DNA of 64,000 bases from Myxococcota bacterium (GTDB taxonomy: Bacteria > Myxococcota_A > Bradymonadia > UBA7976 > UBA1532). Where the stretch lies: contig JAYZEG010000030.1 in assembly GCA_036337435.1 (NCBI GenBank), positions 1 to 64,000 on the forward strand, read 5' to 3'. The notes beneath the pieces are model-generated. The model had not been told where the DNA came from, searched no databases, and saw only the letters and a list, made by a program, of their open reading frames with translations. Position 1 is the first letter of the stretch. Each line of letters opens with the position of its first letter. Made by a program: the position numbers and the translations under genes. Of this stretch, positions 217 through 56,448 are shown in pieces.

Positions 217-3200
217 AGCGGTCATTTTCGCAAACTTGATCCGGCCCGCACTGGACGCCGCCGCAAAGCGCAGCGCAATCACAAGCCGGTGCCGCACATC
301 CGTCGGGTGCGTTTAGAGCACCGCGACAGAAAAGCTCACAGACACCTGGCGCGTCGGCCGACGGACATTGATTCTGAACACAAATACCGGGACATGGGTC
401 AGCCTCAATTGGATTGCCCTCATCATCGAGCGCAGGGGGTGCATCCGGGTCACAGTCATCTGCAGGATCGTCGATACAATTTTGGTCAGCTGGGCACGCG
501 ATTCGGTCCGGACCACCACACGTTGTCTGGACACATCGGTTGGCCCGACATGTACTGTCGTCTGCGCAGTCATCTGAGTCACGACAAATGCCTTCACATT
601 GACACGGAACGGCCGGACATGTGTCTGGCACGACCACATCACCCAAGCAAATCGCTACACATTGATCCGCTTGTGGACAGAGCTCTGCACAGTCCGCTTC
701 ATCGGCACGGTTCTCACAGTCCTCGATTCCATCGCAAAGGCTTAAAGGATCGACACATTGGCCGTCACCGCACGCAAAATCCGGTGCGCAATCGATTGGA
801 GCGCAATCTGTTTCATCGCTGCCATCTAAACAATCCGCTCTCTGGTTACAGGCGAATTGGACGTCGATGCATTGACCATCGGCACAGGTAAACTGGTCAT
901 CGTCGCATGGTGGCAACCCACAGGTTTCATCGGATTCGTCAGTGCCGTCGCCACAATCTTGAAAACCGTCGCAACGACCGATGAGCGGAATGCACTGGCC
1001 ATCAGAGCAGGTAAACTGCGCGTCATTACAAACGACCGGACCACACCGGTCCTCGTCGCGACCATTGGCACAATCACGGGACCCGTCGCAGCTTGGTACA
1101 CAGCGACCATCTTCTGCACAGGGTGTTGTCCCCTCAGGGCATGGGCAACCCGGGTCGCAATGATCTGGTCGCTGACAGCCGTCAACATTGAGCTCTACTC
1201 CATCACATTCACTCAGAGCGCAGAAGGCGACATTGAAGGCGCCTTGGTCCGGACACACGACCTCAGGTTCGCAGGCCCCTTGCTCGGCAACACCCACCCG
1301 TGCACAGCGAGCCAAACACTCGCTATTGTAGGTGTTTCCATCAACGCCACAAACGGGCTCAAAAACAGCCGGGCAACTACAAACTGCACATCGGTTATTG
1401 TCGCAAATTTGACCCGGCTGACAATCTTCATCTGCCTGGCAATCAGGCTCTGGGCAATCTCGTTCATCTGATCCATCGGCGCAGTTTCTCTCGCCATCAC
1501 AGACATCATCAACGGCAATACAGGCGTCATCATCGCAGGCAAACTGACCATCCTCACATCCGGCTCCTGGACAGCCTTGTTCGTCGCTCCGGTCTGCACA
1601 ATCCGCGAATCCATCGCAGCGGGCGACAGCAGGAACACAACTTTCGTCAGCGCAGGTGAACTGATTGTCTCGACAACCAGGTTCACATTCGACTTCATCT
1701 TCACCGCCGACACAATCTGCCTGCCCATTGCAAGCTTGTGCGCATTGGCCATTATCCACGCAGGGGACTTGGCCCTCACCACATGGACAAGCACCATGAC
1801 AGGCGGGTGCGGGGCAGCCACGAGGCAGGTCAAGTTCAATCCCGTTGCACAGGAGTTGGTTACACCATGCTAACGCCGATGGACAATCTTCAGGTGGTGG
1901 ACATTCGCCAACCTGTGCGACCTCGACTCGCGCACATCGAGCAGTACATGCACTTCCGTACGTATTGCCGTCAACACCGCAGACAGGCTCGAAGACCGCC
2001 TCGCATTCACAGACCTCGCACTGATCATTCTCACAGCGTTGGCCTGCATCACAATCTACGTCTTGTTGGCAGGCTTCACCGGGGCAATCCCGCTCATCTT
2101 GGCCATCTTGGCAATCCCTTTGACCATCACAAACCCGATTTTGCTCAATACACTCGCCATCAGCACAACGGAATCGGCCATCGTCACACTCCGGTTGAGG
2201 GCAATCCATTTCGTCGCTTCGATCAGCACAATCCGCAATGCCATCGCAGCGACCAAGCAAGGGAATACAGGCACCATCCGTGCAAGTAAATTGCTCATCG
2301 GTGCATTCGACCGGACCGCAATTGGCTTCATCACGACCATCGGCACATTGAGCGACGTCGTCACACGCAGGCACACATCGACCAGCGTCTGCACAGGGTG
2401 TCGTCCCTTCCCCGCAAGGACAACCATGACAAGTCGGCTGAGCACACCCATCAGGCAGTGGCGGCATAACACGCTCGCATTCGAGCAAGGCACACCAGAC
2501 GTCTGGACTTGGACATTCTACGTCGACAACACACTCTCCTTCGGCGGCGATTTCGACGTGTTGGCATGCGGCCTGGCATTCATTCCCGTACGTGTTGCCA
2601 TCGACACCACAAACCGGCTCGCGAACCGCTGGACATTCACACGGAATACACTCGCCTTGTGTACAACGCTGACCGCGCTCACAGTCAACATCTTCAACAC
2701 AGCGATTGCAGTCGACTTCGTCAGCACCGTCGTCACAATCTCGTGCACCGTCACATTGTTGAATGGGGTCTAAGCACGGCCCATTATCCGGGCAGGCGAA
2801 CTCACCATCAGCACAGACAACCGGACAAGGGTCGCACGCGGGGTCCGCACATCCAGCCGGCAATTGGATGGGGTCTGGGGTACATCGGGACTGGCATACC
2901 GCGTCTGGGTCAGGGCAATTTCTGGGCACACAGACACCAGTACAGTTTGGATCGTCGCCCCCAATTCGACAGTCGCCATCCGGATTATCGACGCATTCTT
3001 GATCGTCTGGGCAGTCAACACCCATGGCACCACCACAGAATCGATCGATACAACGCCCGTCCATACACATTTCACCGTCATCGCAATCACCATCTAGGTC
3101 GCAGACGTTGCAAACGCAGTCTGGTTGTGGGCATCCAGCTGGGATGGGCGGCGCCGGTTGATTCGTACAGACAGCATCACAGATAACCTCCGCTGCAGGA

Positions 3201-47536: not shown

Positions 47537-48937
47537 ATGAGCAGCCAGACATCAGCTTATTCCGGTAACGGACGGCAAGCTTTTGATGAGAGCATCTGGG
47601 CGGACGTGCGCGTGACCGCTTCGAAGACCGCTAAAAAAGTCCAATTCATCGGGGGTTTTAAGCACTCCGACGCCATCTTCAGGTGGTGCGATCAAGAGGC
47701 TGGACTCAAGGTCTTGGGCTTTGGATGTTTCGCGATTTCAACATCGGCAGATGCGTTCCAGCAGCCCTTGGAGTTTGTCATCGGTGGCGTGCATGTAGAT
47801 GCCGACGATTTGTTTACATACATCAAAACAAAACTAGACGAGTCTCTATGGGCGATGCCCATCGGGTTCTTTGCACTGCGTTTTGATTCAGAGCGAGACA
47901 GTCAATCGAGCCTGTGGTGTGAGTGGCCGGCTGCAATCGTTCAAATTCCCGAACAGATCATTGTCGAAAAAGAGGGCCGAGAGACAGTCGATATCAGATT
48001 TGAATTAGTCAGCCAGTCACATCCACTTGCCAATGGAAACAACAAATCCGTGACAACACGCAGCGAGCGACAGTTCGAATGCACTCGCTGGAGTTCGAAC
48101 CAAAAGTGGGACGAAGCCGAGGACAGCACTCATTTTCAGGACAGGGTGTTCGCCGTTGAGGCGGCCTGTCGCAATGAACTCGTTGATAAAATTGTTTTGG
48201 CTCGTAGTGCCAGTGTGCGCTGCGAACCACAGCAGAGCTTTTGTCCTCAGAAAACGTACGACGCCCTCGTTGATAAACATCCGAAAACGACCGTCTTTTC
48301 CATCCGACGAGGCAGTCAGCATTTCATGGGAGCAACGCCCGAGACGCTCGTGAGGGTCACGGGGTATGAAGTTACGACCCATGCGTTGGCTGGCACCGCG
48401 ACCCATGATCCAGAGGCCATGCTGGTCGATGACAAAATACGAAGAGAACACGCCTACGTTGTCGGCGAGATTCAGTCGGGGCTCGAACCCCTGTGTGATG
48501 CATTGCAGATCGAACCGGCACCGAGCATTCGACCGGCCAATCATTTGTTTCATCTTCAAACCAAGTTGGTCGGCGTCCCCAAGGCTGGGTATTCGATTTT
48601 CGACTTTGTTCGCGCGCTCCATCCGACGCCCGCGCTCTGCGGGTTGCCGAGACAAGATTCAATGTCGTGGTTACGGAAAACCGAACCTCTGGACCGTGGT
48701 TTTTTTGGCGGGCCCGTGGGTCTTTTCGATGCATCGGGCCAAAATGGGACCTGCGCTGTTGCAATTCGCTCGGGGTTGCTCGGCCTAAACCAAGCCGTTG
48801 GGTTCGCAGGCGCAGGCATCGTGAGCGGCTCGAATCCAGTGGAAGAGTGGACAGAAACGGAAGCGAAATTAGACGCGTTCAGGTCGGCTCTTCGCACGAT
48901 GAAGCGGCCGGATTCAGAGGACGCGGTGCGACAATGA
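47537..48937 (+). CDS. menF: Isochorismate synthase
   Basis: KIVLAR, FMGATPETL, ALAGT, K.RREH..V, LHPTPALCGLP, RGFFGGPVG, AIRSG, AGAGIV.GS.P.EEW.ETEAK. Confidence 0.9.
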   Translation: MSSQTSAYSGNGRQAFDESIWADVRVTASKTAKKVQFIGGFKHSDAIFRWCDQEAGLKVLGFGCFAISTSADAFQQPLEFVIGGVHVDADDLFTYIKTKLDESLWAMPIGFFALRFDSERDSQSSLWCEWPAAIVQIPEQIIVEKEGRETVDIRFELVSQSHPLANGNNKSVTTRSERQFECTRWSSNQKWDEAEDSTHFQDRVFAVEAACRNELVDKIVLARSASVRCEPQQSFCPQKTYDALVDKHPKTTVFSIRRGSQHFMGATPETLVRVTGYEVTTHALAGTATHDPEAMLVDDKIRREHAYVVGEIQSGLEPLCDALQIEPAPSIRPANHLFHLQTKLVGVPKAGYSIFDFVRALHPTPALCGLPRQDSMSWLRKTEPLDRGFFGGPVGLFDASGQNGTCAVAIRSGLLGLNQAVGFAGAGIVSGSNPVEEWTETEAKLDAFRSALRTMKRPDSEDAVRQ

Positions 48938-50682
48938 ATACGGCAGCCCTGCGTCCGATGAACCAAGCCTGGGCCAACGCATGGATCAGTGCAGCAATCA
49001 TCGCTGAAATCGTCGAACAAGGCGTTAAACTCGCCGTTTTATCGCCAGGGTCACGCAACACACCCTTGGCCCTGGCACTGGCTGATTGCCCACAGGTTGA
49101 AGTTAAAGTGGTTCTCGATGAGAGGAGTGCCGGATTTTTTGCGCTGGGCGTCGCAAGAGCCAGCCAGCGACCCGTTGTCCTCGCCTGTACGTCGGGGAGC
49201 GCATTAGCCAATTATTATCCAGCGGTTGTCGAGGCTTTTCACAGTGAAATACCGCTTGTCTTGCTGACGGCCGATCGACCGAGTGAATTACAAGGTCGCG
49301 GTGCGCCGCAGACGATGAAACAGCCTGGTTTTTTTGGTTCATTCGCCAAAGTTTGTATGGCGATTGATGCGCCCGAGCCAGAGGCTCCGGTCAACCTGGA
49401 TAGGTTAAGTGATCTTGGGTTTGCGATTCGCACGGCCAGAACAGCGCCGCAAGGACCCGTCCATGTGAATTGTGGTTTCCGGAAGCCATTGTGGGATCCG
49501 CAGACCGAACGGCAGGTCATCAAGGTTCCAAAAAGGGACTATGAGCAAATCATTCGGGATACGACCGAGCAGATGACGGATGCTTTTGTTGACCTCGTGG
49601 CGCGTTCAACCAAGGGCGTATTTGTTTGCGGTCCAGACGCTTTTAAGTCGTCGGGTGACGCGTCCAAATTATACGAGTTGGCGGACGGATTAGGGTGGCC
49701 GGTTCTTGCTGAAGCGTCGTCCGGAGCACGATATGGCCACTCACATTCGTCATTGTTCACACACTATGACGCGGCATTCAGAACGCCTCATGCGATACCC
49801 GAACCCGACTGCATTGTCAGATTTGGTCGGGCTTGTACATCGCAGTGGCTCGCCAATTGGATCAGGGACTGTGAACATGCGGCTTGGATTGTCATTCATG
49901 ATGGGCAAACATGCGTTGATCCAGAGCGACACCACGACCATTACTTCGAGGTGTCGCCGGCCATATTGGTGGACAAAGTTGTGGCGAGACGTTTTCGTAC
50001 GGCAGCAGACCCCGATTGGTTAAGCCAATGGACCCAACTTGAGACAACGTGTCAATCGGCTTTGGACCGAGACGATTTAGACTTATTCTGGGAAGGCTCT
50101 GTCGCCTCGATCTGCGTAGAACACCAACCAAATGGGTCTGCGATTCATGTTGCCAATAGTATGCCGATTCGTGACCTGGACGCCTTTGGCGGTCGCACTG
50201 AGTCTGAGCTGACAATATTTGTGAATCGAGGCCTGAACGGAATCGATGGCACCATTGCCACCGCAGTGGGTGAACAAGTTGGGCTGGCTGATGCGCGCCT
50301 GCTTCTACTCGTCGGAGATTTAGCGTTCCGACACGATGCCAATAGTCTTGCCTTGTGCCGTGATACCAAGCTCACGATCGTGGTCAATGATAATGGCGGC
50401 GGCCAAATTTTTCGATTTCTTCCAATCAGCGAACATAAACGGGTGTTCGAAGAGCTTTTCCTGACCCCGTCGAAAATCGAAGTGGAGGCTCTTTGTCGCG
50501 GCTACGGTCTGCGCTGCACGATCGTCGAGACAAACGATGAACTCAAAACTGCATTGGCGAACGAACAAGATAAAAGCGACTCGGGCGTCATCATCGCGCG
50601 CATTGACCCCGAATTAAATTACAAGCAGCACCACGCGATGTGGCAGCGCGTCCGAGACCAATTGGCCGAGTCAAGCCCATGA
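48934..50682 (+). CDS. menD: SEPHCHC synthase
   Basis: SPGSRNTPL, DERSAGFFALG, CTSGSA.ANYYPAVVEA, NSMPIRD, NRGLNGIDG, GDLAF.HD, NDNGGGQIF; ATGA overlap with the menF stop. Confidence 0.95.
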   Translation: MNTAALRPMNQAWANAWISAAIIAEIVEQGVKLAVLSPGSRNTPLALALADCPQVEVKVVLDERSAGFFALGVARASQRPVVLACTSGSALANYYPAVVEAFHSEIPLVLLTADRPSELQGRGAPQTMKQPGFFGSFAKVCMAIDAPEPEAPVNLDRLSDLGFAIRTARTAPQGPVHVNCGFRKPLWDPQTERQVIKVPKRDYEQIIRDTTEQMTDAFVDLVARSTKGVFVCGPDAFKSSGDASKLYELADGLGWPVLAEASSGARYGHSHSSLFTHYDAAFRTPHAIPEPDCIVRFGRACTSQWLANWIRDCEHAAWIVIHDGQTCVDPERHHDHYFEVSPAILVDKVVARRFRTAADPDWLSQWTQLETTCQSALDRDDLDLFWEGSVASICVEHQPNGSAIHVANSMPIRDLDAFGGRTESELTIFVNRGLNGIDGTIATAVGEQVGLADARLLLLVGDLAFRHDANSLALCRDTKLTIVVNDNGGGQIFRFLPISEHKRVFEELFLTPSKIEVEALCRGYGLRCTIVETNDELKTALANEQDKSDSGVIIARIDPELNYKQHHAMWQRVRDQLAESSP

Positions 50683-51578: not shown

Positions 51579-52585
51579 CGTTATCTGTCGACAGCATTCG
51601 CTTCAAACCATACGACGTCGACTTGGACCGGGCAGTTCGGAAGACTGTTTTTGGCGATAAGCCTCGCCGGTGTTGGCACGTTTGCACTCGGACCATCGAA
51701 GGACAGACCGGTTGGGGTGATATTGCTCCTTGGCCTGGATTTAGCGAGTCTGCAACCGAAATAGACCGTCGCATCCATCAACTTGAAACGTCTATCTCTC
51801 CGGTTCAATTCGAACAGATTGCGGACATGGAAATCTGGCTGGACGGGCTGGACTTGGAGCCTGTCATTCGCTTCGGACTCGAACTGTCATTTTTGGATCT
51901 GTTTGCTCAACAACGAGGCGTTCCGATTGCAGCACTTCTCGATCCAAACTATGCCACCGAACTGTCGATTCATGCGTTGGTGGACAGTGCTGAGACAGCC
52001 GTCAGCTCTGTTGAAGCGGGAGCGGACGCCATTAAAGTTAAACTCAGTGACACTTGGCGCAAAGACGTCGAACGCATTCGAGACATCCGACAGGCGGTTC
52101 CGCTGGCGAAAATTCGGATCGATGCCAACGGGGCGTGGCCGGAGCGGCTCGCGAAAAAACGAGTCAGAGAGCTCAGCGAACTGGGTGTAGACATCATCGA
52201 ACAACCTGTGTCAGGAGAAGATATTGACGGTTTAAAAGCGGTTGCATCAACCTGCGAGATGACCCTCTCGGCTGATGAATCGGTTTGCGTCGATGCTGAG
52301 GCTGTCCTTGCCATTGACGCGCTCAATGAAATCGTTTTGAAACCCATGTATTTGGGTGGACTCGTGCCCTCGTACGAACTGGCCCAGAAAGCCTATCGGC
52401 GTGGGTTGAAGGTCTGCGTCACTCACGCTCTGGAATCCAAAATCGGTCGAACTGGCGCAGCTCACCTAGCCGCCGCATCCGACGCGCTCAAGCCGGCAAC
52501 CCATGGCATCTCCGGAGCCTGGAATCGGTCAGCAATGGAGATCATGGTGCCAAGAACCCCAGGCCTTGGAGTCTCCGTCCAATGA
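51575..52585 (+). CDS. menC: o-succinylbenzoate synthase (enolase superfamily)
   Basis: GWGDIAPWPGF, IKVK, RIDANGAW, IEQP, ADES, LKP..LGG; ATGA overlap with the menA stop. The track ORF 50951 includes a spurious upstream part. Confidence 0.88.
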   Translation: MTLSVDSIRFKPYDVDLDRAVRKTVFGDKPRRCWHVCTRTIEGQTGWGDIAPWPGFSESATEIDRRIHQLETSISPVQFEQIADMEIWLDGLDLEPVIRFGLELSFLDLFAQQRGVPIAALLDPNYATELSIHALVDSAETAVSSVEAGADAIKVKLSDTWRKDVERIRDIRQAVPLAKIRIDANGAWPERLAKKRVRELSELGVDIIEQPVSGEDIDGLKAVASTCEMTLSADESVCVDAEAVLAIDALNEIVLKPMYLGGLVPSYELAQKAYRRGLKVCVTHALESKIGRTGAAHLAAASDALKPATHGISGAWNRSAMEIMVPRTPGLGVSVQ

Positions 52586-54372
52586 CCACTTGGCTACCAC
52601 ACCCCCTCTACCAAGCCGCCCAAGCGCATCCAAATCGCATTGCGATTCGCGAAGGGATAGCCGCACTCACATATGGACAACTCCTGTCCCGAGTGGCCGC
52701 GCGCGGCGATGTCCTGCGAGCGAGTGGTGTTGACGGCGGGGCCGTGGTTGGTTTGAGAGGCCAACAAAACCTGGATTGGTTGATTAACTTTCACGCCATA
52801 GGATGGTGCAATGCCGCGGTTTTTCCGATAGGCGAGGACCTGCATTTGACCGATGGGGAGTTACGCGAACTCAATGTCACTCAGGTGATCGAGAGTCGGA
52901 AACAGGCAACAACCGACAATGTTGAGGGGACATCTGAGCCAGTCTTCGCGCCGCGGTGGCATCTAGATGAACTCAGGCTGCTGATCGCAACGACTGGAAG
53001 CACAGGGCGTCCAAAAGTTATACCGCTCACGACTGGACAGCTCTTTTTCAGTGCGATGGGATCAGCCATTCGCCTTGGGCATCAACTCGACGATAACTGG
53101 CTGATGTGTCTACCGGCCCACCATATCGGTGGAGCGTCGATTCTGCTGAGAGCAGCCTGGTACGGGATCAGCGCGGAGATTTGTCTCCCATTCGAAGTAC
53201 ACCGGGTCGCCGAGCGTCTCCGCTCGGGCGAGGTAACAATGGTGTCATTGGTGCCCACCATGCTGAGTCGCTTGGTACGACTTCATGACGGGACAAGCCT
53301 CCCGTCCAGACTTCGTTGCGTGCTCGTCGGCGGGGCCCATTGTTCGACCTCATTGCAGGACGCAGCGCTCAAAGCCGGTCTCCCTGTGCTTTTGACTTGG
53401 GGTATGACTGAATGCGCCTCGCAGGCAGCAACACAGTCACCCGGCCAAAATCCAGTCACTCACGATTGTGGGTCTCCGATGCCATTCACAGTTGTCTCGA
53501 CCGAAGATAAGCGACTTAGGATTGACGGACCGACCTGTCCCGGCGGCCTACTAACCCGCGACCTTGGAGACATCGAGAACGGCCGAGTTCGTGTGGATGG
53601 CAGATGCGATACAGTTTTGATTAGTGGAGGAAAAAAAATCCAACCACAATCAGTTGAGTGCATCTTCCAACAGCACGAAAGCATCAATTCCTGTGTGATT
53701 ATCGGACTGAACGATGAGCAGTGGGGCCAAACCGTCTGCCTGTGCGTAGAACTCAACGCAGACTACGATTTCTCGACCGAGCTGGAACACCTGGTGCGAC
53801 TGGGACGCTCGAAACTGAAAAAGCATGAGATTCCGAAAGTGTGGGTTCAGGTACCCAAAATGCCGACCAATTCGGTTGGCAAAGTGGATCGAACTCAGCT
53901 TCGAGCCAACTTAGGGCTTGACCATGCCGATCCCGACGAGCTGGTCGATGAACTGAGGTGGACATTCAGTCGGCTTGAAAGCTGGGAAGGCAACGAAAGC
54001 GTGTTTCTGGCGGACGACACAACGCACTTTTCCGTCAAGAAGTCCGGAAATGGAACACTTGAATGTAATGGATCTTTGAGTCAGGCGCTCAATCTCCATG
54101 GTGGCAACCAAACGCTCGCCTCTGCGCATGGGTTGGTTAAACGCCGAATCGGCAAAGACGAGGGGCAAACCAACTCCAGCGGAGTCGAAAACATGGTCGA
54201 AGTCGCCAAAGGCAGCAGTGAGCATTTCTTCGAAACACACGTGGGCATACTCGAAGGCGCGACCATAGAAAACGATCCCGGCGCGGTCGACCTCGTGGAA
54301 TCGGGGCGTGAATTCGTGTTTGAAGGACATAAGCAAATACCCAACGGTCATGAGGCTGATCAGAATGACTAA
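52582..54372 (+). CDS. menE: o-succinylbenzoate-CoA ligase with ~150-aa C-terminal extension running across the antisense thioesterase gene
   Basis: TTGSTGRPK, WLMCLPAHHIGG, SLVPTML, TWGMTECASQ, TRDLG, GR.D.VLISGGKKI.P, GKVDR; AMP-binding core ends near 53910. Confidence 0.9.
   Translation: MTTWLPHPLYQAAQAHPNRIAIREGIAALTYGQLLSRVAARGDVLRASGVDGGAVVGLRGQQNLDWLINFHAIGWCNAAVFPIGEDLHLTDGELRELNVTQVIESRKQATTDNVEGTSEPVFAPRWHLDELRLLIATTGSTGRPKVIPLTTGQLFFSAMGSAIRLGHQLDDNWLMCLPAHHIGGASILLRAAWYGISAEICLPFEVHRVAERLRSGEVTMVSLVPTMLSRLVRLHDGTSLPSRLRCVLVGGAHCSTSLQDAALKAGLPVLLTWGMTECASQAATQSPGQNPVTHDCGSPMPFTVVSTEDKRLRIDGPTCPGGLLTRDLGDIENGRVRVDGRCDTVLISGGKKIQPQSVECIFQQHESINSCVIIGLNDEQWGQTVCLCVELNADYDFSTELEHLVRLGRSKLKKHEIPKVWVQVPKMPTNSVGKVDRTQLRANLGLDHADPDELVDELRWTFSRLESWEGNESVFLADDTTHFSVKKSGNGTLECNGSLSQALNLHGGNQTLASAHGLVKRRIGKDEGQTNSSGVENMVEVAKGSSEHFFETHVGILEGATIENDPGAVDLVESGREFVFEGHKQIPNGHEADQND
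53911..54330 (-). CDS. 4HBT-type hotdog acyl-CoA thioesterase, probable DHNA-CoA hydrolase
   Basis: MSFKHEFTPRFHEVDRAGIVFYGRAFEYAHVCFEEML, GLPLVFADSAFNQPMRRGE, C-terminal P.ECP; located in the menaquinone operon. Confidence 0.85.
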   Translation of the reverse strand: MSFKHEFTPRFHEVDRAGIVFYGRAFEYAHVCFEEMLTAAFGDFDHVFDSAGVGLPLVFADSAFNQPMRRGERLVATMEIERLTQRSITFKCSISGLLDGKVRCVVRQKHAFVAFPAFKPTECPPQFIDQLVGIGMVKP

Positions 54373-55456
54373 GCAAAGTACATTTCGGGTGAAGTTGGCT
54401 GAACAACCAGCCAAAACAGATCCGGTGCTTACGACACTGGCATCAACAACACAACGAAATCAAGCCGATGAGGTGTCCAAGCGACTCATCGAACTGAGGG
54501 ATTGGCTGGCCGATGACCTCTACGAACTTGAGAAAGATATGGGGACCGTGGTGGCAGACCCCGGCAAAGATCTTGCTTGGAAGGCGGTGCAGTATCTACT
54601 GCACAAGGCAGGAAAGCGAGTTCGCCCTATCTGCACCCTGTTGGCAGCACGGATGGGTGATAGACCGTTCGATGAGGATGTCAAACAGGTGGCCATCGCC
54701 GCCGAGTTAGTACACTCTGCAACGCTCCTGCATGACGATGTTATTGACCAAGGCGAAGAGCGTCGCGGCCATCCGACGGCCCGGATGGTTTATGGCAATT
54801 CAGCGAGCGTCTTGGGTGGTGACCATTTACTGGTAGACGCATTGAGACGTGTAAATACAGCCGACTCAAGGTTGGTCTCGTCGCTGCTCGATGTGATCTC
54901 GCAGATGGTCCATGCAGAAGCACTTCAATTGGATATGAGAAACTGTTTCAAGCCGGATCGGGAGTTGTATCAAGAAGTCGTTCATGGCAAGACTGCGGCT
55001 CTGTTCCAATGGGCTTTGGAAGCCGGTGCTCTTTTGGGTCATTTAAACGAGCAACAAATCAGCTTGTTGAGCGACGTTGGAGTCAATCTTGGGATGACAT
55101 TTCAGTTGGTAGACGACAAGCTCGACTTGTGCGGAGATCCAACAGAGACCGGCAAAGATACCTGTCTCGATTTGAGAGAAGGAAAGTTGACCTGGCCAAT
55201 GATTCTCGCAGCGGAACGATCGCCACAATTACTGCTTCAATTGAGGCAATATGCCAGCGCGACGACAGACCCTTCGCGAGCGGATGCAAAACGTCTCGTG
55301 GAGGCGATTGCCGCGACCGGTGCCATCGAGGCGACCCATGCGCGTGCCGCAGCCTTTGCCGACAAAGCACTAGACTCACTGAGGAAACTGCCTGACGGTC
55401 CATCTCGCTCTGCGCTAAAGGCTGTGATTCATACAGCCCTTGAACGGTCGAGGTAA
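54365..55456 (+). CDS. Long-chain polyprenyl diphosphate synthase (IspB/HepT-like)
   Basis: GKRVRP, ELVHSATLLHDDVID...RRG, KTAALF, FQLVDD.LD, GK....DLREGK.T.P. Start 54365 (alternatives 54350, 54308). Confidence 0.92.
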   Translation: MTKQSTFRVKLAEQPAKTDPVLTTLASTTQRNQADEVSKRLIELRDWLADDLYELEKDMGTVVADPGKDLAWKAVQYLLHKAGKRVRPICTLLAARMGDRPFDEDVKQVAIAAELVHSATLLHDDVIDQGEERRGHPTARMVYGNSASVLGGDHLLVDALRRVNTADSRLVSSLLDVISQMVHAEALQLDMRNCFKPDRELYQEVVHGKTAALFQWALEAGALLGHLNEQQISLLSDVGVNLGMTFQLVDDKLDLCGDPTETGKDTCLDLREGKLTWPMILAAERSPQLLLQLRQYASATTDPSRADAKRLVEAIAATGAIEATHARAAAFADKALDSLRKLPDGPSRSALKAVIHTALERSR

Positions 55457-55461
55457 AGCCC

Positions 55462-56448
55462 ATGCTGATCAACTTAAAACCGACAGCCGATACGAATTCG
55501 GTAAAGCAAACGCTGACGGGCTTTGGTCTTTGGCTCGAGACACTTCTCGACCAAGACGGTGCCGCCACTGGCTTCATCGTGAAGGGCTATTCAACCCCTG
55601 TCGACCCACAAAAAATCGCATCTTTGGATGGGGTCAGCGGGGTCTTCAAAACCGAAAGTAGTCACCCAAAGGTCGATGCGAGGTGCCACCAGGTGATCGA
55701 CTTGGGTGAGCTTCAATTTAGAACGACGACACCGACACTGATCGCAGGGCCATGCAGCGTAGACTCAGAAGAACGAATTGAAAGCATCGCAAGCCAGGTT
55801 GCACAAGCAGGCGGAAAAGTGTTGAGGGGTGGGGCTTACAAACCACGAACATCTCCTTATTCCTTTGCTGGATTTGGCAAACCCGCGTTGCAATGGATGA
55901 GGCGCGCCGCCGATCGACACGGACTGCGTATCGTGACCGAAGTCATGTCGGAACACGATGTGAATACCGTTGCCGACATGACTGATATTGTTCAGGTTGG
56001 ATCGCGCAACATGCAAAACTTTGCGCTGTTGAGACAGGTAGGCGAAGCGAGAAAATGCGTCCTCTTGAAACGGGGTCGTTCGGCAACGGTCTCAGAATGG
56101 TTGATGGCTGCCGAGTACCTGTATGCCAGTGGTGCCGACAGTGTCCTTTTTTGTGAACGGGGCATTCGTGGATTCGATGGCGAAACGAGAAACCTCATCG
56201 ACTTAGGTGCTGTCGCTCTCCTGAGCCATCACTATGGGCTTCCAGTTATCGTCGATCCATCTCATGCGGCAGGGCGACGGGATCTGATTGTTCCATTGTC
56301 GAAGGCGTCGATCGCGGCTGGTGCTGTTGGCGTCATGGTCGAGGTTCATCCAGCACCCAGCACCGCCCTATCCGATGGGCCTCAAGCGTTGAGCTACGAA
56401 ACCTTGAGACAACTCTCAAAATCTCTGGAACTGGAGTGCATTCAATGA
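55462..56448 (+). CDS. aroF: DAHP synthase, type I-beta with N-terminal regulatory domain
   Basis: IAGPCSV, RGGAYKPRTSPYSF, GSRNMQNF, LKRG, CERGIR, DPSH, EVHP.P..ALSDG.Q. Confidence 0.93.
   Translation: MLINLKPTADTNSVKQTLTGFGLWLETLLDQDGAATGFIVKGYSTPVDPQKIASLDGVSGVFKTESSHPKVDARCHQVIDLGELQFRTTTPTLIAGPCSVDSEERIESIASQVAQAGGKVLRGGAYKPRTSPYSFAGFGKPALQWMRRAADRHGLRIVTEVMSEHDVNTVADMTDIVQVGSRNMQNFALLRQVGEARKCVLLKRGRSATVSEWLMAAEYLYASGADSVLFCERGIRGFDGETRNLIDLGAVALLSHHYGLPVIVDPSHAAGRRDLIVPLSKASIAAGAVGVMVEVHPAPSTALSDGPQALSYETLRQLSKSLELECIQ

Follow-up and report, generated by a model that had tools for sequence, protein, structure and literature searches.

An antisense thioesterase gene nested in a menE reading frame that stays open up to the start of the next gene

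Results

The menE frame crosses a whole gene of the opposite strand

We analyzed a window of 64,000 nucleotides from a Myxococcota genome, hereafter G000; all the genomes compared are metagenome-assembled and, according to the record titles, none comes from a cultured member. In this window, menE is preceded by menD, menA and menC and followed by the genes of a polyprenyl synthase, a DAHP synthase and menG/ubiE, and menB is located elsewhere in the G000 genome. As presented in Table 1, the menE open reading frame (52582..54372 on the + strand in the ORF list, 596 aa) is composed of an ordinary MenE core, up to approximately position 53910, and a tail of 153 codons, which is codon-aligned antisense to a thioesterase gene and then runs through 13 codons via the spacer. 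The two frames overlap by 420 nt on opposite strands in register 0 (codon-aligned). The thioesterase starts at ATG 54330, a conserved start within a minus-strand ORF of 53911..54414, and stops at the complement of 53911-53913. This opposite-strand gene is flanked by same-strand operon genes, in an order that is conserved in relatives. At its 5' end, the menE ATG overlaps the menC stop (ATGA, 52582-52585). At its 3' end, in the junction sequence AATGACTAA, the polyprenyl synthase ATG (54365-54367) begins 5 nt ahead of the menE stop TAA (54370-54372). A sequence-only reading of this DNA had described a menE frame open for about 150 codons past the core, over the whole thioesterase and up to the synthase ATG, and the ORFs and the sequence confirm this anatomy.

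Table 1. Coordinates of the features at the menE locus of G000 (positions within the window).
Feature	Position	Strand	Basis
menE core (o-succinylbenzoate-CoA ligase, putative)	52582..53910	+	Pfam, NCBIfam, ORF ends
menE tail, 153 codons + TAA 54370-54372	53911..54372	+	no in-frame stop
Slr0204-type hotdog thioesterase of 139 aa, probably acting on DHNA-CoA	53911..54330	-	Pfam, profile vs PDB
divergent spacer, 34 nt, thioesterase start to synthase start	54331..54364	.	menE frame reads across
long-chain polyprenyl diphosphate synthase	54365..55456	+	Pfam polyprenyl_synt, E 2e-57

In the menE product, Pfam detected AMP-binding (PF00501) at residues 104-326 (E 6e-38) and AMP-binding_C (PF13193) at 358-434 (E 2e-7), and the MenE domains delimited by Pfam and NCBIfam together correspond to residues 1-444. 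The best of 86 NCBIfam models was TIGR01923 (menE), with 234.6 bits, under its cut-off of 330; the MenE identity is a putative one based on this best model match, which does not reach the equivalog cut-off, and on the operon context. The last 152 residues of the product matched no family in a Pfam search. AlphaFold2 pLDDT values were mostly 70-95 over residues 1-445 and 24-34 over tail residues 448-596, with no predicted fold, and a protein atlas search with the tail gave a best score of 0.78 and a recognition value of 1318, in the range of shuffled sequences.

The thioesterase matched PF13279 (4HBT_2; 29.3 bits, cut-off 25.5) and PF03061 (4HBT; 24.2 bits, cut-off 20.6), both scores being modest. 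When its profile was compared to the PDB, the top match was 4K00, a 1,4-dihydroxy-2-naphthoyl-CoA hydrolase (E 8e-18, 121 residues), with which the Asp of the N-terminal 'DxxGxV' aligns. This residue, D15, belongs to the 23 invariant columns in an alignment of 10 thioesterase orthologues; the catalytic Asp of the hotdog class is Asp16 in the S. aureus enzyme (PMC8918352). Like the Slr0204-type DHNA-CoA thioesterase (4K00), the nested gene encodes a 4HBT-class hotdog protein with the aligned N-terminal Asp and stands in a men operon. It is probably a thioesterase of this type, with DHNA-CoA hydrolysis as its predicted activity, and the 4K00 match supports the same assignment in the sequence-only reading. 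Comparison with the G002 orthologue (pN 0.075, pS 0.467) clearly points to purifying selection on the thioesterase frame.

The nested layout is kept in relatives

We observed an open menE frame in 17/17 distinct related loci holding both the menE end and the thioesterase, over a GC range from 53% to about 79%. Tails measured 144-166 aa, in register 0, in all 10 genome loci with the thioesterase, and 147-186 aa in the seven further distinct metagenome loci with the menE end (7/7; L067, identical to L002, was counted once). Three distinct partial loci (L040, L073 and L077) were also open across the part present (3/3). Thioesterase identity among nested loci drops as low as 37%, and the low-GC nested loci form one derived clade of related members. 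In relatives that lack the thioesterase, menE stops at the start of the synthase or a few nt from it (9/9), and in such family members the MenE tails are only 7-34 aa. The earlier reading had proposed to compare related menE loci for the tail, the thioesterase nested in it and the coupled stop and start; all three are kept without exception. Distant convergent menE-hotdog pairs (L094, L095 and L098) had no useful family among their neighbours and do not settle the origin of the nesting. The lineage bearing the nested layout is a family of uncultured marine Myxococcota.

We then compared the junction sequences, in 10 loci and afterwards in 12 more. In all the nested loci, the tail stop lies between -8 and +4 nt relative to the synthase start, as ATGACTAA, ATGA/GTGA, TAATG or TGA followed by 1-4 nt and ATG. 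The spacers vary in length and sequence, yet the menE stop stays at the synthase start. This start is consistent with tblastn matches from synthase residue 1 in G002, G001 and G021, which begin at the junction, and an alternative upstream ATG (54350) is absent in G002. The spacer carries purine-rich Shine-Dalgarno-like runs for both the thioesterase and the synthase, and GC-rich relatives have GGAGG-like runs ahead of the synthase start. Since the synthase has such a run of its own, it could initiate independently, which counts against a coupling of the two genes. RNA folds of 106 nt around the menE stop and the synthase start in 6 loci gave z values from -1.55 to +1.34, none significant, and RNA folding lends no support to a structure hiding the synthase ribosome-binding site or making coupling obligatory.

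A scan of 53500-54900 for promoters and terminators returned 0 of each, which does not exceed the number in shuffled sequences; the result is of little weight, as the models may not fit the host's promoter types. In five public RNA libraries, 5-8% of the sampled words were recovered. Three of these libraries, together with one DNA run, were compared with the locus as short unstranded contigs, in which gaps are uninformative. One unstranded 224-nt contig from an RNA library spans 53800-54023 and crosses 53910. Because menE has no stop there, a transcript spanning the thioesterase is likely.

Antisense stops are absent from the thioesterase gene

Each TTA, CTA or TCA codon of the thioesterase would be a stop in the aligned menE frame. 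As suggested by the sequence-only reading, we counted these codons and found them absent when judged against local codon usage: 0 were observed in 20 non-identical loci, compared to about 20.8 expected from the codon usage of menE and the synthase at each locus (15.9 expected without three closer relatives). In the low-GC set alone, the counts were 0/1034 in the thioesterase and 120/4888 in the neighbours (Fisher p 1.6e-10). Even when non-nested hotdog homologues served as a lenient null, the joint chance of openness was 5e-6 to 2e-4.

These figures bear on a neutral explanation, in which the layout goes back to the loss of a stop, or to an insertion of the thioesterase, in a GC-rich ancestor with an antisense frame open by default, chance and inheritance did the rest and the tail is tolerated junk. 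Several observations agree with it. In GC-rich relatives, an antisense frame has a chance of 0.33-0.79 per locus of being open, near default, so that most of the statistical weight lies on one low-GC clade. Hotdog genes are intrinsically poor in the three codons, which 13/31 non-nested homologues (50-64% GC) do not use at all, and in long genes of G000 they are lacking from 228/6654 windows of 139 codons (3.4%). The earlier caveat that the aligned register opens easily is therefore fair for G000 alone, in which such openness is nothing unusual; it is the relatives (17/17 and 3/3 open) that provide the excess over chance. Against chance and inheritance stands the lack of any exception in the 20 loci. 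Moreover, the same codon is used at only 31-53% of identical residues among most low-GC loci (66% in the closer pair L001-L002), which places their synonymous sites near saturation and makes their codon choices largely independent. The simple loss of a stop that had also been considered may describe the origin of the layout, but gives no account of its openness as GC fell from about 70% to 53%. We regard the neutral explanation as rather improbable.

Five natural variants were found in the overlap: all of them are synonymous in the thioesterase, all alter a residue of the tail and none creates a stop.

Codon choice in the thioesterase and composition of the tail

The depletion extends beyond stops. 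A-ending codons of the thioesterase are depleted only where the antisense codon is TAN or TGN. In the low-GC set, we counted NTA at 1/358, ACA at 4/52 and GCA at 6/91, with NAA and NGA normal; in the high-GC set, N[TC]A reached 2/593 in the thioesterase compared to 138/4169 in the neighbours. G-ending codons giving antisense His or Arg are also reduced. Depletion of TA is confined to codon phase 2-3. Only 10/6654 windows of G000 were equally depleted and no gene of at least 250 aa fell under 0.056, compared to 0.02 for the thioesterase, a genome-wide outlier, which counts against the neutral explanation.

As GTA, ATA, ACA and GCA are depleted along with the stop-making codons, the thioesterase might shun N-pyrimidine-A codons for a translation or mRNA reason of its own, the open polar antisense frame being a side effect. 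We find this very hard to believe, given that no other G000 gene of that length shows the depletion, that it was not seen in the non-nested homologues, that it is phase-specific with no dinucleotide effect, and that an A-ending rule leaves the reduced G-ending codons unpredicted.

To put numbers on the tail, we compared its composition with simulations built on the protein of the thioesterase gene and on the codon usage of the locus, separately for the low-GC and high-GC sets. The tails were higher in D+E (z 5.1 and 2.9, respectively) and in small polar residues (z 4.7 and 4.4), and lower in K+R (z -5.0 and -4.8) and in Y+C+W (z -5.5 and -3.8). Tyr is absent in 14/14 tails, in which D+E amount to 24-35 and K+R to 10-18. 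Chance openness predicts neither the depletion of Tyr/Cys codons nor the charge bias.

Such a shift, present in both GC groups and in a tail that persists throughout the family, would also be expected if the tail served MenE as an acidic disordered region, for instance in solubility, tethering or regulation, and was kept for itself, with an inherited stop position. A permutation test for position-specific synonymous conservation in the thioesterase, however, gave z values of 1.3 (12 loci) and 0.4 (5 low-GC loci), compared to 6.8 for the synthase. This lack of conservation across distant lineages suggests a tail with no conserved residues of its own, beyond the demands of the thioesterase. It agrees with a non-specific tail, yet it is no positive sign of function. 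The tail frame combines strong stop avoidance and compositional bias with no position-specific constraint, beside a thioesterase frame under purifying selection. The missing fold and family, the short MenE tails of thioesterase-less family members and the stop that stays at the synthase start despite differing spacers also speak against a tail kept for itself, and we consider this explanation unlikely, although less so than the neutral one.

In close pairs, thioesterase pS is below that of the neighbours (for example 0.467 vs 0.706 and 0.589). We dropped this as separate evidence, since the permutation null shows that a stronger codon bias can account for it.

Discussion

The 3' part of the menE frame contains a thioesterase gene in inverted orientation. 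A whole enzyme gene would be antisense within a translated frame of an enzyme of the same pathway, with 420 bp decoded on both strands. On balance we lean towards the reading that this frame has been kept open, acidic, polar and without Tyr/Cys since before the sampled genera diverged, that the tail acts as a 'ribosome bridge' and that the protein of the other strand shapes the synonymous codons of the thioesterase. Comparative data of this kind make it probable, to our judgment, that the tail is translated, kept open and chemically harmless, and that it carries ribosomes over the antisense gene, which preserves the coupling between menE and the synthase. Ribosomes on menE would cross the antisense thioesterase and the 34-nt spacer before any stop and would terminate on top of the synthase start codon. 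If selection holds the menE frame open, the tail of about 150 residues is presumably made as a protein, and an acidic, polar tail without Tyr, Cys or Trp would be at least harmless. After a premature stop, about 100-450 nt of mRNA would be left untranslated ahead of the synthase, the expression of which would be what such a stop harms. The stranded mRNA could cost the termination-reinitiation coupling, be exposed to Rho, or pair with the complementary thioesterase mRNA and be processed by RNase III; G000 has genes for both Rho and RNase III. That the extension carries ribosomes over the antisense gene had been proposed from G000, and this part of the proposal fits the 9/9 thioesterase-less relatives that end menE at the synthase start. 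Antisense transcription may in addition set the level of the ligase against that of the thioesterase, as the same proposal conjectured.

ATGA-type stop/start overlaps in operons are a known route to translational coupling. In the thioesterase-less relatives as in all the nested loci, the stop of menE overlaps the start of the synthase or adjoins it, and menC/menE share an ATGA too. Unlike ordinary coupled pairs, the menE frame first crosses about 460 nt in which the opposite strand codes for a different protein. We found no account, in the open-access literature, of a frame running through an antisense gene to a coupled start, a result that does not prove absence.

Long coding overlaps between opposite strands are disputed in bacteria: the majority of candidates are of recent origin, short and limited to a single species, and chance open frames arise easily. 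The menE overlap stands out in that it involves two recognisable enzymes of one pathway, is old enough for comparison over genera and a large GC shift, and leaves a measurable footprint in the synonymous codons of the embedded gene, which keep stops and Tyr/Cys/Trp out of the antisense frame and shift it towards acidic residues. At this locus, the question of whether an antisense frame can be kept open by selection can be put to a clean natural test. The locus also suggests a reason for such selection, namely that ribosomes would stay on the operon mRNA across the inverted gene. The long antisense overlapping genes olg1 and olg2 of Pseudomonas aeruginosa (PMC8850804; the functionality of prokaryotic antisense proteins is reviewed in PMC7457138) are likewise long ORFs that lie antisense over a recognised gene and in which comparison points to selection against stops. 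The menE case differs in several respects. Its antisense ORF extends a known enzyme gene at the 3' end and is no separate novel gene, the gene embedded in it encodes another enzyme of that pathway, the layout is conserved over a family, down to 37% thioesterase identity, and the apparent constraint concerns openness and composition only. Furthermore, examples of that type are backed by ribosome profiling, whereas the menE tail is known from its sequence.

An opposite-strand gene inside an operon that includes menE is also described for S. aureus, in the noncontiguous operon menE-menC-MW1733-ytkD-MW1731 (Saenz-Lahoya et al., 2019, as cited in the review PMC7154746; PMC11034616). There, the overlapped stretch is described as an internal untranslated region between genes (PMC7154746), in agreement with the sequence-only reading, which had placed the S. 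aureus case apart as one without coding overlap. Here, this stretch lies within the menE ORF, which runs as far as the following gene's start, and co-transcription is likely rather than described as in S. aureus. As in that operon, the mRNA of the opposite-strand gene, here the thioesterase, would be complementary to the operon mRNA over its full length, so that transcriptional interference and processing by RNase III may occur. If our reading holds, a translated variant would join the noncontiguous-operon idea described for the S. aureus men operon. For annotation, gene callers are forced at such loci either to drop the thioesterase or to truncate menE.

Organization of the menE locus

As presented in the table, the menE frame comprises a ligase core and a C-terminal tail that covers a complete thioesterase gene on the opposite strand. 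The top NCBIfam model for the 596-codon ORF was menE (TIGR01923, 234.6 bits, under its 330-bit cut-off), and a Pfam search matched no family in the last 152 residues. For the thioesterase, a profile built from ten orthologues gave as top solved relative 4K00, a DHNA-CoA hydrolase (E 8e-18). The two frames are codon-aligned: the complement of the thioesterase stop is the codon immediately 3' of ...LRAN in the menE frame, which terminates at TAA 54370-54372, within ATGACTAA, 5 nt past the ATG (54365) of the polyprenyl diphosphate synthase gene. The ORF listing and the sequence bear out in every detail the layout of menE frame, antisense thioesterase and stop/start junction described by the sequence-only reading.

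Features of the menaquinone locus in the window
Feature	Position	Strand	Description
menD ORF as listed	48667-50682	+
menE ORF	52582..54372	+	596 codons
MenE core, adenylate-forming ligase	first 444 residues of the menE ORF	+	Pfam AMP-binding and AMP-binding_C
Hotdog thioesterase	53911..54330	-	139 aa; Pfam 4HBT_2 and 4HBT
DAHP synthase	55462-56448	+	NF006421, 376 bits

Upstream of menE lie menD, menA and menC, and downstream the polyprenyl synthase, a DAHP synthase gene and menG/ubiE, all of them plus-strand genes with tight junctions; menB is located elsewhere in this genome (G000). Within the menaquinone operon the DAHP synthase gene is placed after the polyprenyl synthase and before menG/ubiE, which suggests a shikimate-pathway entry step dedicated to quinone synthesis. 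The listed menD ORF begins 89 codons before the first residue matching the menD model, and this long N-terminal stretch is probably untranslated. An in-frame ATG (54350-54352), 15 nt before the synthase start, is GAG in two related genomes (G002 and G001), so that 54365 is the conserved start.

Conservation of the nested thioesterase

We searched for the MenE core in 41 related genomes (uncultured Myxococcales, Bradymonadia or Nannocystaceae MAGs) and located the first in-frame stop past the MenE homology for 30 loci. The thioesterase lay between menE and the synthase in 10 of them (L001, L002, L003, L004, L007, L008, L009, L011, L013 and L018), and in all 10 menE was extended by 144-166 codons in the codon-aligned register, covering the whole thioesterase. 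At nine loci the synthase directly followed menE, without thioesterase, and menE tails measured 7-34 codons. Eleven loci without a synthase match were set aside: eight are menE-like but more distant and end normally, two run off their contigs (L016, L029), and one is a ligase of 24% identity with an unrelated long frame (L030). A metagenome scan yielded 68 loci, the thioesterase adjoining the synthase in 12; the menE frame read through in 8/8 loci holding the menE end (tails of 147-186 codons) and was open over the stretch present in the other 4/4. Three pairs were identical over the thioesterase (L067 and L002, L071 and L070, L074 and L075). Overall, the extension, the nested thioesterase and the stop/start junction, whose conservation the sequence-only reading had proposed to check, were kept in 17/17 distinct loci with both menE end and thioesterase, and 3/3 distinct partial loci were open, with zero exceptions.

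The thioesterase was present in 11 of 28 family genomes, in each case at the menE-synthase locus, one of which (G003) is interrupted by a contig end. Across the class, 18 of 113 genomes had a match; the seven additional matches were 31-37% identical, and neither menE nor the synthase was found at these loci (0/7), tblastn having recovered six of the matches (not L066). In a synthase tree, nested loci were spread across the family with non-nested ones interspersed, and low-GC loci formed one derived clade; the best tree needs 4 changes, of which well-supported branches force only 1.

In three distant lineages (L094, L095, L098), menE and a hotdog gene are convergent, in the other two registers, and menE ends at an ordinary stop. 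L095 (hotdog 2453-2926(+), menE end at 2913(-)) and L098 (hotdog 2489-2887(+), menE end at 2884(-)) are two unrelated GC-rich lineages; their hotdog thioesterases are 33-34% identical, the paired genes overlap by a few nt at their 3' ends, and their stops are ordinary. These two pairs possibly represent a precursor state of the nested layout. No useful family was found among the neighbour genes of the convergent pairs. The closest thioesterase homologues outside the Myxococcota set (L078-L080, L145, L147; 32-35% identical) are on low-GC contigs, two labelled Neomarinimicrobiota; in the regions retrieved, neither menE nor the synthase was next to them, and they carry 3-5 TTA/CTA/TCA codons each.

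Junction with the synthase gene

In all nested loci, the stop of the extended menE frame overlaps or adjoins the synthase start, in the form ATGACTAA, ATGA or GTGA, TAATG, or TGA separated from a downstream ATG by 1-4 nt. The menE stop was also at the synthase start in 9/9 loci without thioesterase, mostly as ATGA, which indicates that the coupling junction is the older feature. The thioesterase is located upstream of this junction, within the menE frame. No RNA structure supporting obligatory menE-synthase coupling was found at the junction, and the synthase is preceded by its own Shine-Dalgarno-like run.

Avoidance of antisense stop codons

In G000 (coding GC 53%), TTA, CTA and TCA together make up 2.7% of codons; when long genes are cut into non-overlapping windows of 139 codons, 228 of 6654 (3.4%) contain none of them. 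The open antisense frame in this genome, taken alone, is not beyond chance, and the earlier caveat that a codon-aligned antisense frame opens easily was justified. Three of 2144 long genes had a codon-aligned antisense frame open along their whole length (trimmed lengths of 223, 269 and 302 codons).

Depletion of these codons in the thioesterase, also proposed as a check, was observed across loci. Applying the menE and synthase codon usage of each locus to the actual Leu and Ser content of its thioesterase, 20.8 such codons were expected and 0 observed in 20 non-identical loci (15.9 expected without three closer relatives). In the low-GC set, eight loci at or below 63% GC, we counted 0/1034 in the thioesterase versus 120/4888 in the neighbouring genes (Fisher p 1.6e-10); same-codon identity at identical residues was near saturation for most of these loci (31-53%), the exception being the closer pair L001-L002 (66%). 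Weighing against this, between one third and four fifths of GC-rich relatives would have an open frame by default, and TTA/CTA/TCA were absent from 13/31 non-nested hotdog homologues of 50-64% GC. Even under these lenient rates, the joint chance of all frames being open was 5e-6 (all 20 loci) or 2e-4 (14 loci).

Codon footprint and composition of the tail

In the thioesterase, A-ending codons were missing only where the antisense codon would start with TA or TG (NTA 1/358; TCA 0/37; ACA 4/52; GCA 6/91), and NAA and NGA were used as in neighbouring genes. In GC-rich loci, N[TC]A codons numbered 2/593 in the thioesterase versus 138/4169 in neighbouring genes (p 3e-6), with NGA undepleted. The TA deficit was limited to codon phase 2-3. 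The G000 thioesterase has 1 N[TC]A-type codon among 51 candidates, equally low in only 10/6654 genomic windows, and no G000 gene of at least 250 aa was under 0.056 for this class. In non-nested homologues both codon classes were equally and mildly depleted, with ratios of 0.80/0.70 (low-GC set) and 0.52/0.46 (high-GC set). Within the depleted class, the codons that do not create antisense stops (GTA, ATA, ACA and GCA; antisense Tyr and Cys) were 4- to 7-fold less frequent (p 1e-9 and 3e-4). When position 2 is a pyrimidine, the A-ending codon is the only one of its box giving an antisense aromatic, Cys or stop; when it is a purine, all four codons give antisense residues of one class. The one reading that fits is avoidance of antisense aromatic, Cys and stop codons.

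We compared the real tails with simulated ones, in which thioesterase synonymous codons were redrawn from local usage with stops forbidden (z for the low-GC and high-GC nested sets, respectively). Asp+Glu (5.1, 2.9) and small polar residues (4.7, 4.4) were commoner, and Lys+Arg (-5.0, -4.8), His (-3.7, -2.7) and Tyr+Cys+Trp (-5.5, -3.8) were rarer; Tyr was absent in 14/14 tails. Because a frame is read only in translation, we take this bias as an indirect sign that the tail protein is produced.

The acidic composition also bears on the main rival explanation, in which the extension is a functional acidic tail of MenE. AlphaFold2 (14-row alignment) modelled the core well and gave pLDDT of 24-34 for residues 448-596, and a protein atlas search did not recognise the tail. 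Position by position, thioesterase synonymous codons were conserved no more than under permutation in distant lineages (z 1.3; synthase 6.8). The sole invariant tail residue, His583 (54328-54330), corresponds to the thioesterase start codon on the opposite strand (ATG read as CAT, or GTG as CAC in L018). Taken together, these results argue for a constraint on openness and composition, not on particular residues.

Proposed read-through

On comparative evidence, the best-supported reading is that menE ribosomes would keep translating across the antisense thioesterase gene until they terminate at the synthase start, preserving the menE-synthase coupling present in relatives without thioesterase; we infer that the frame is kept open for the sake of synthase expression. 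A premature tail stop can be created by a change synonymous in the thioesterase, and would be followed by a long stretch of untranslated mRNA. Rho could then act on this stretch, or it could pair with the complementary thioesterase mRNA and become a target of RNase III; G000 carries genes for both Rho and RNase III. The tail composition would then reflect selection for a harmless product.

The closest described system is the S. aureus noncontiguous operon menE-menC-MW1733, in which the overlapped stretch is described as untranslated (PMC7154746). In P. aeruginosa, long overlapping genes in antisense orientation are described that have support from ribosome profiling (PMC8850804). The Myxococcota locus appears to join features of both, an antisense pathway gene within an operon and its crossing by a probably translated frame. 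This combination was not found in searches of open-access literature.

An unstranded RNA-library contig of 224 nt covers 53800-54023, crossing the end of the core. Five natural variants were observed in the overlap, all at tail codon position 1: each is thioesterase-synonymous and changes the tail residue, and none makes a stop.
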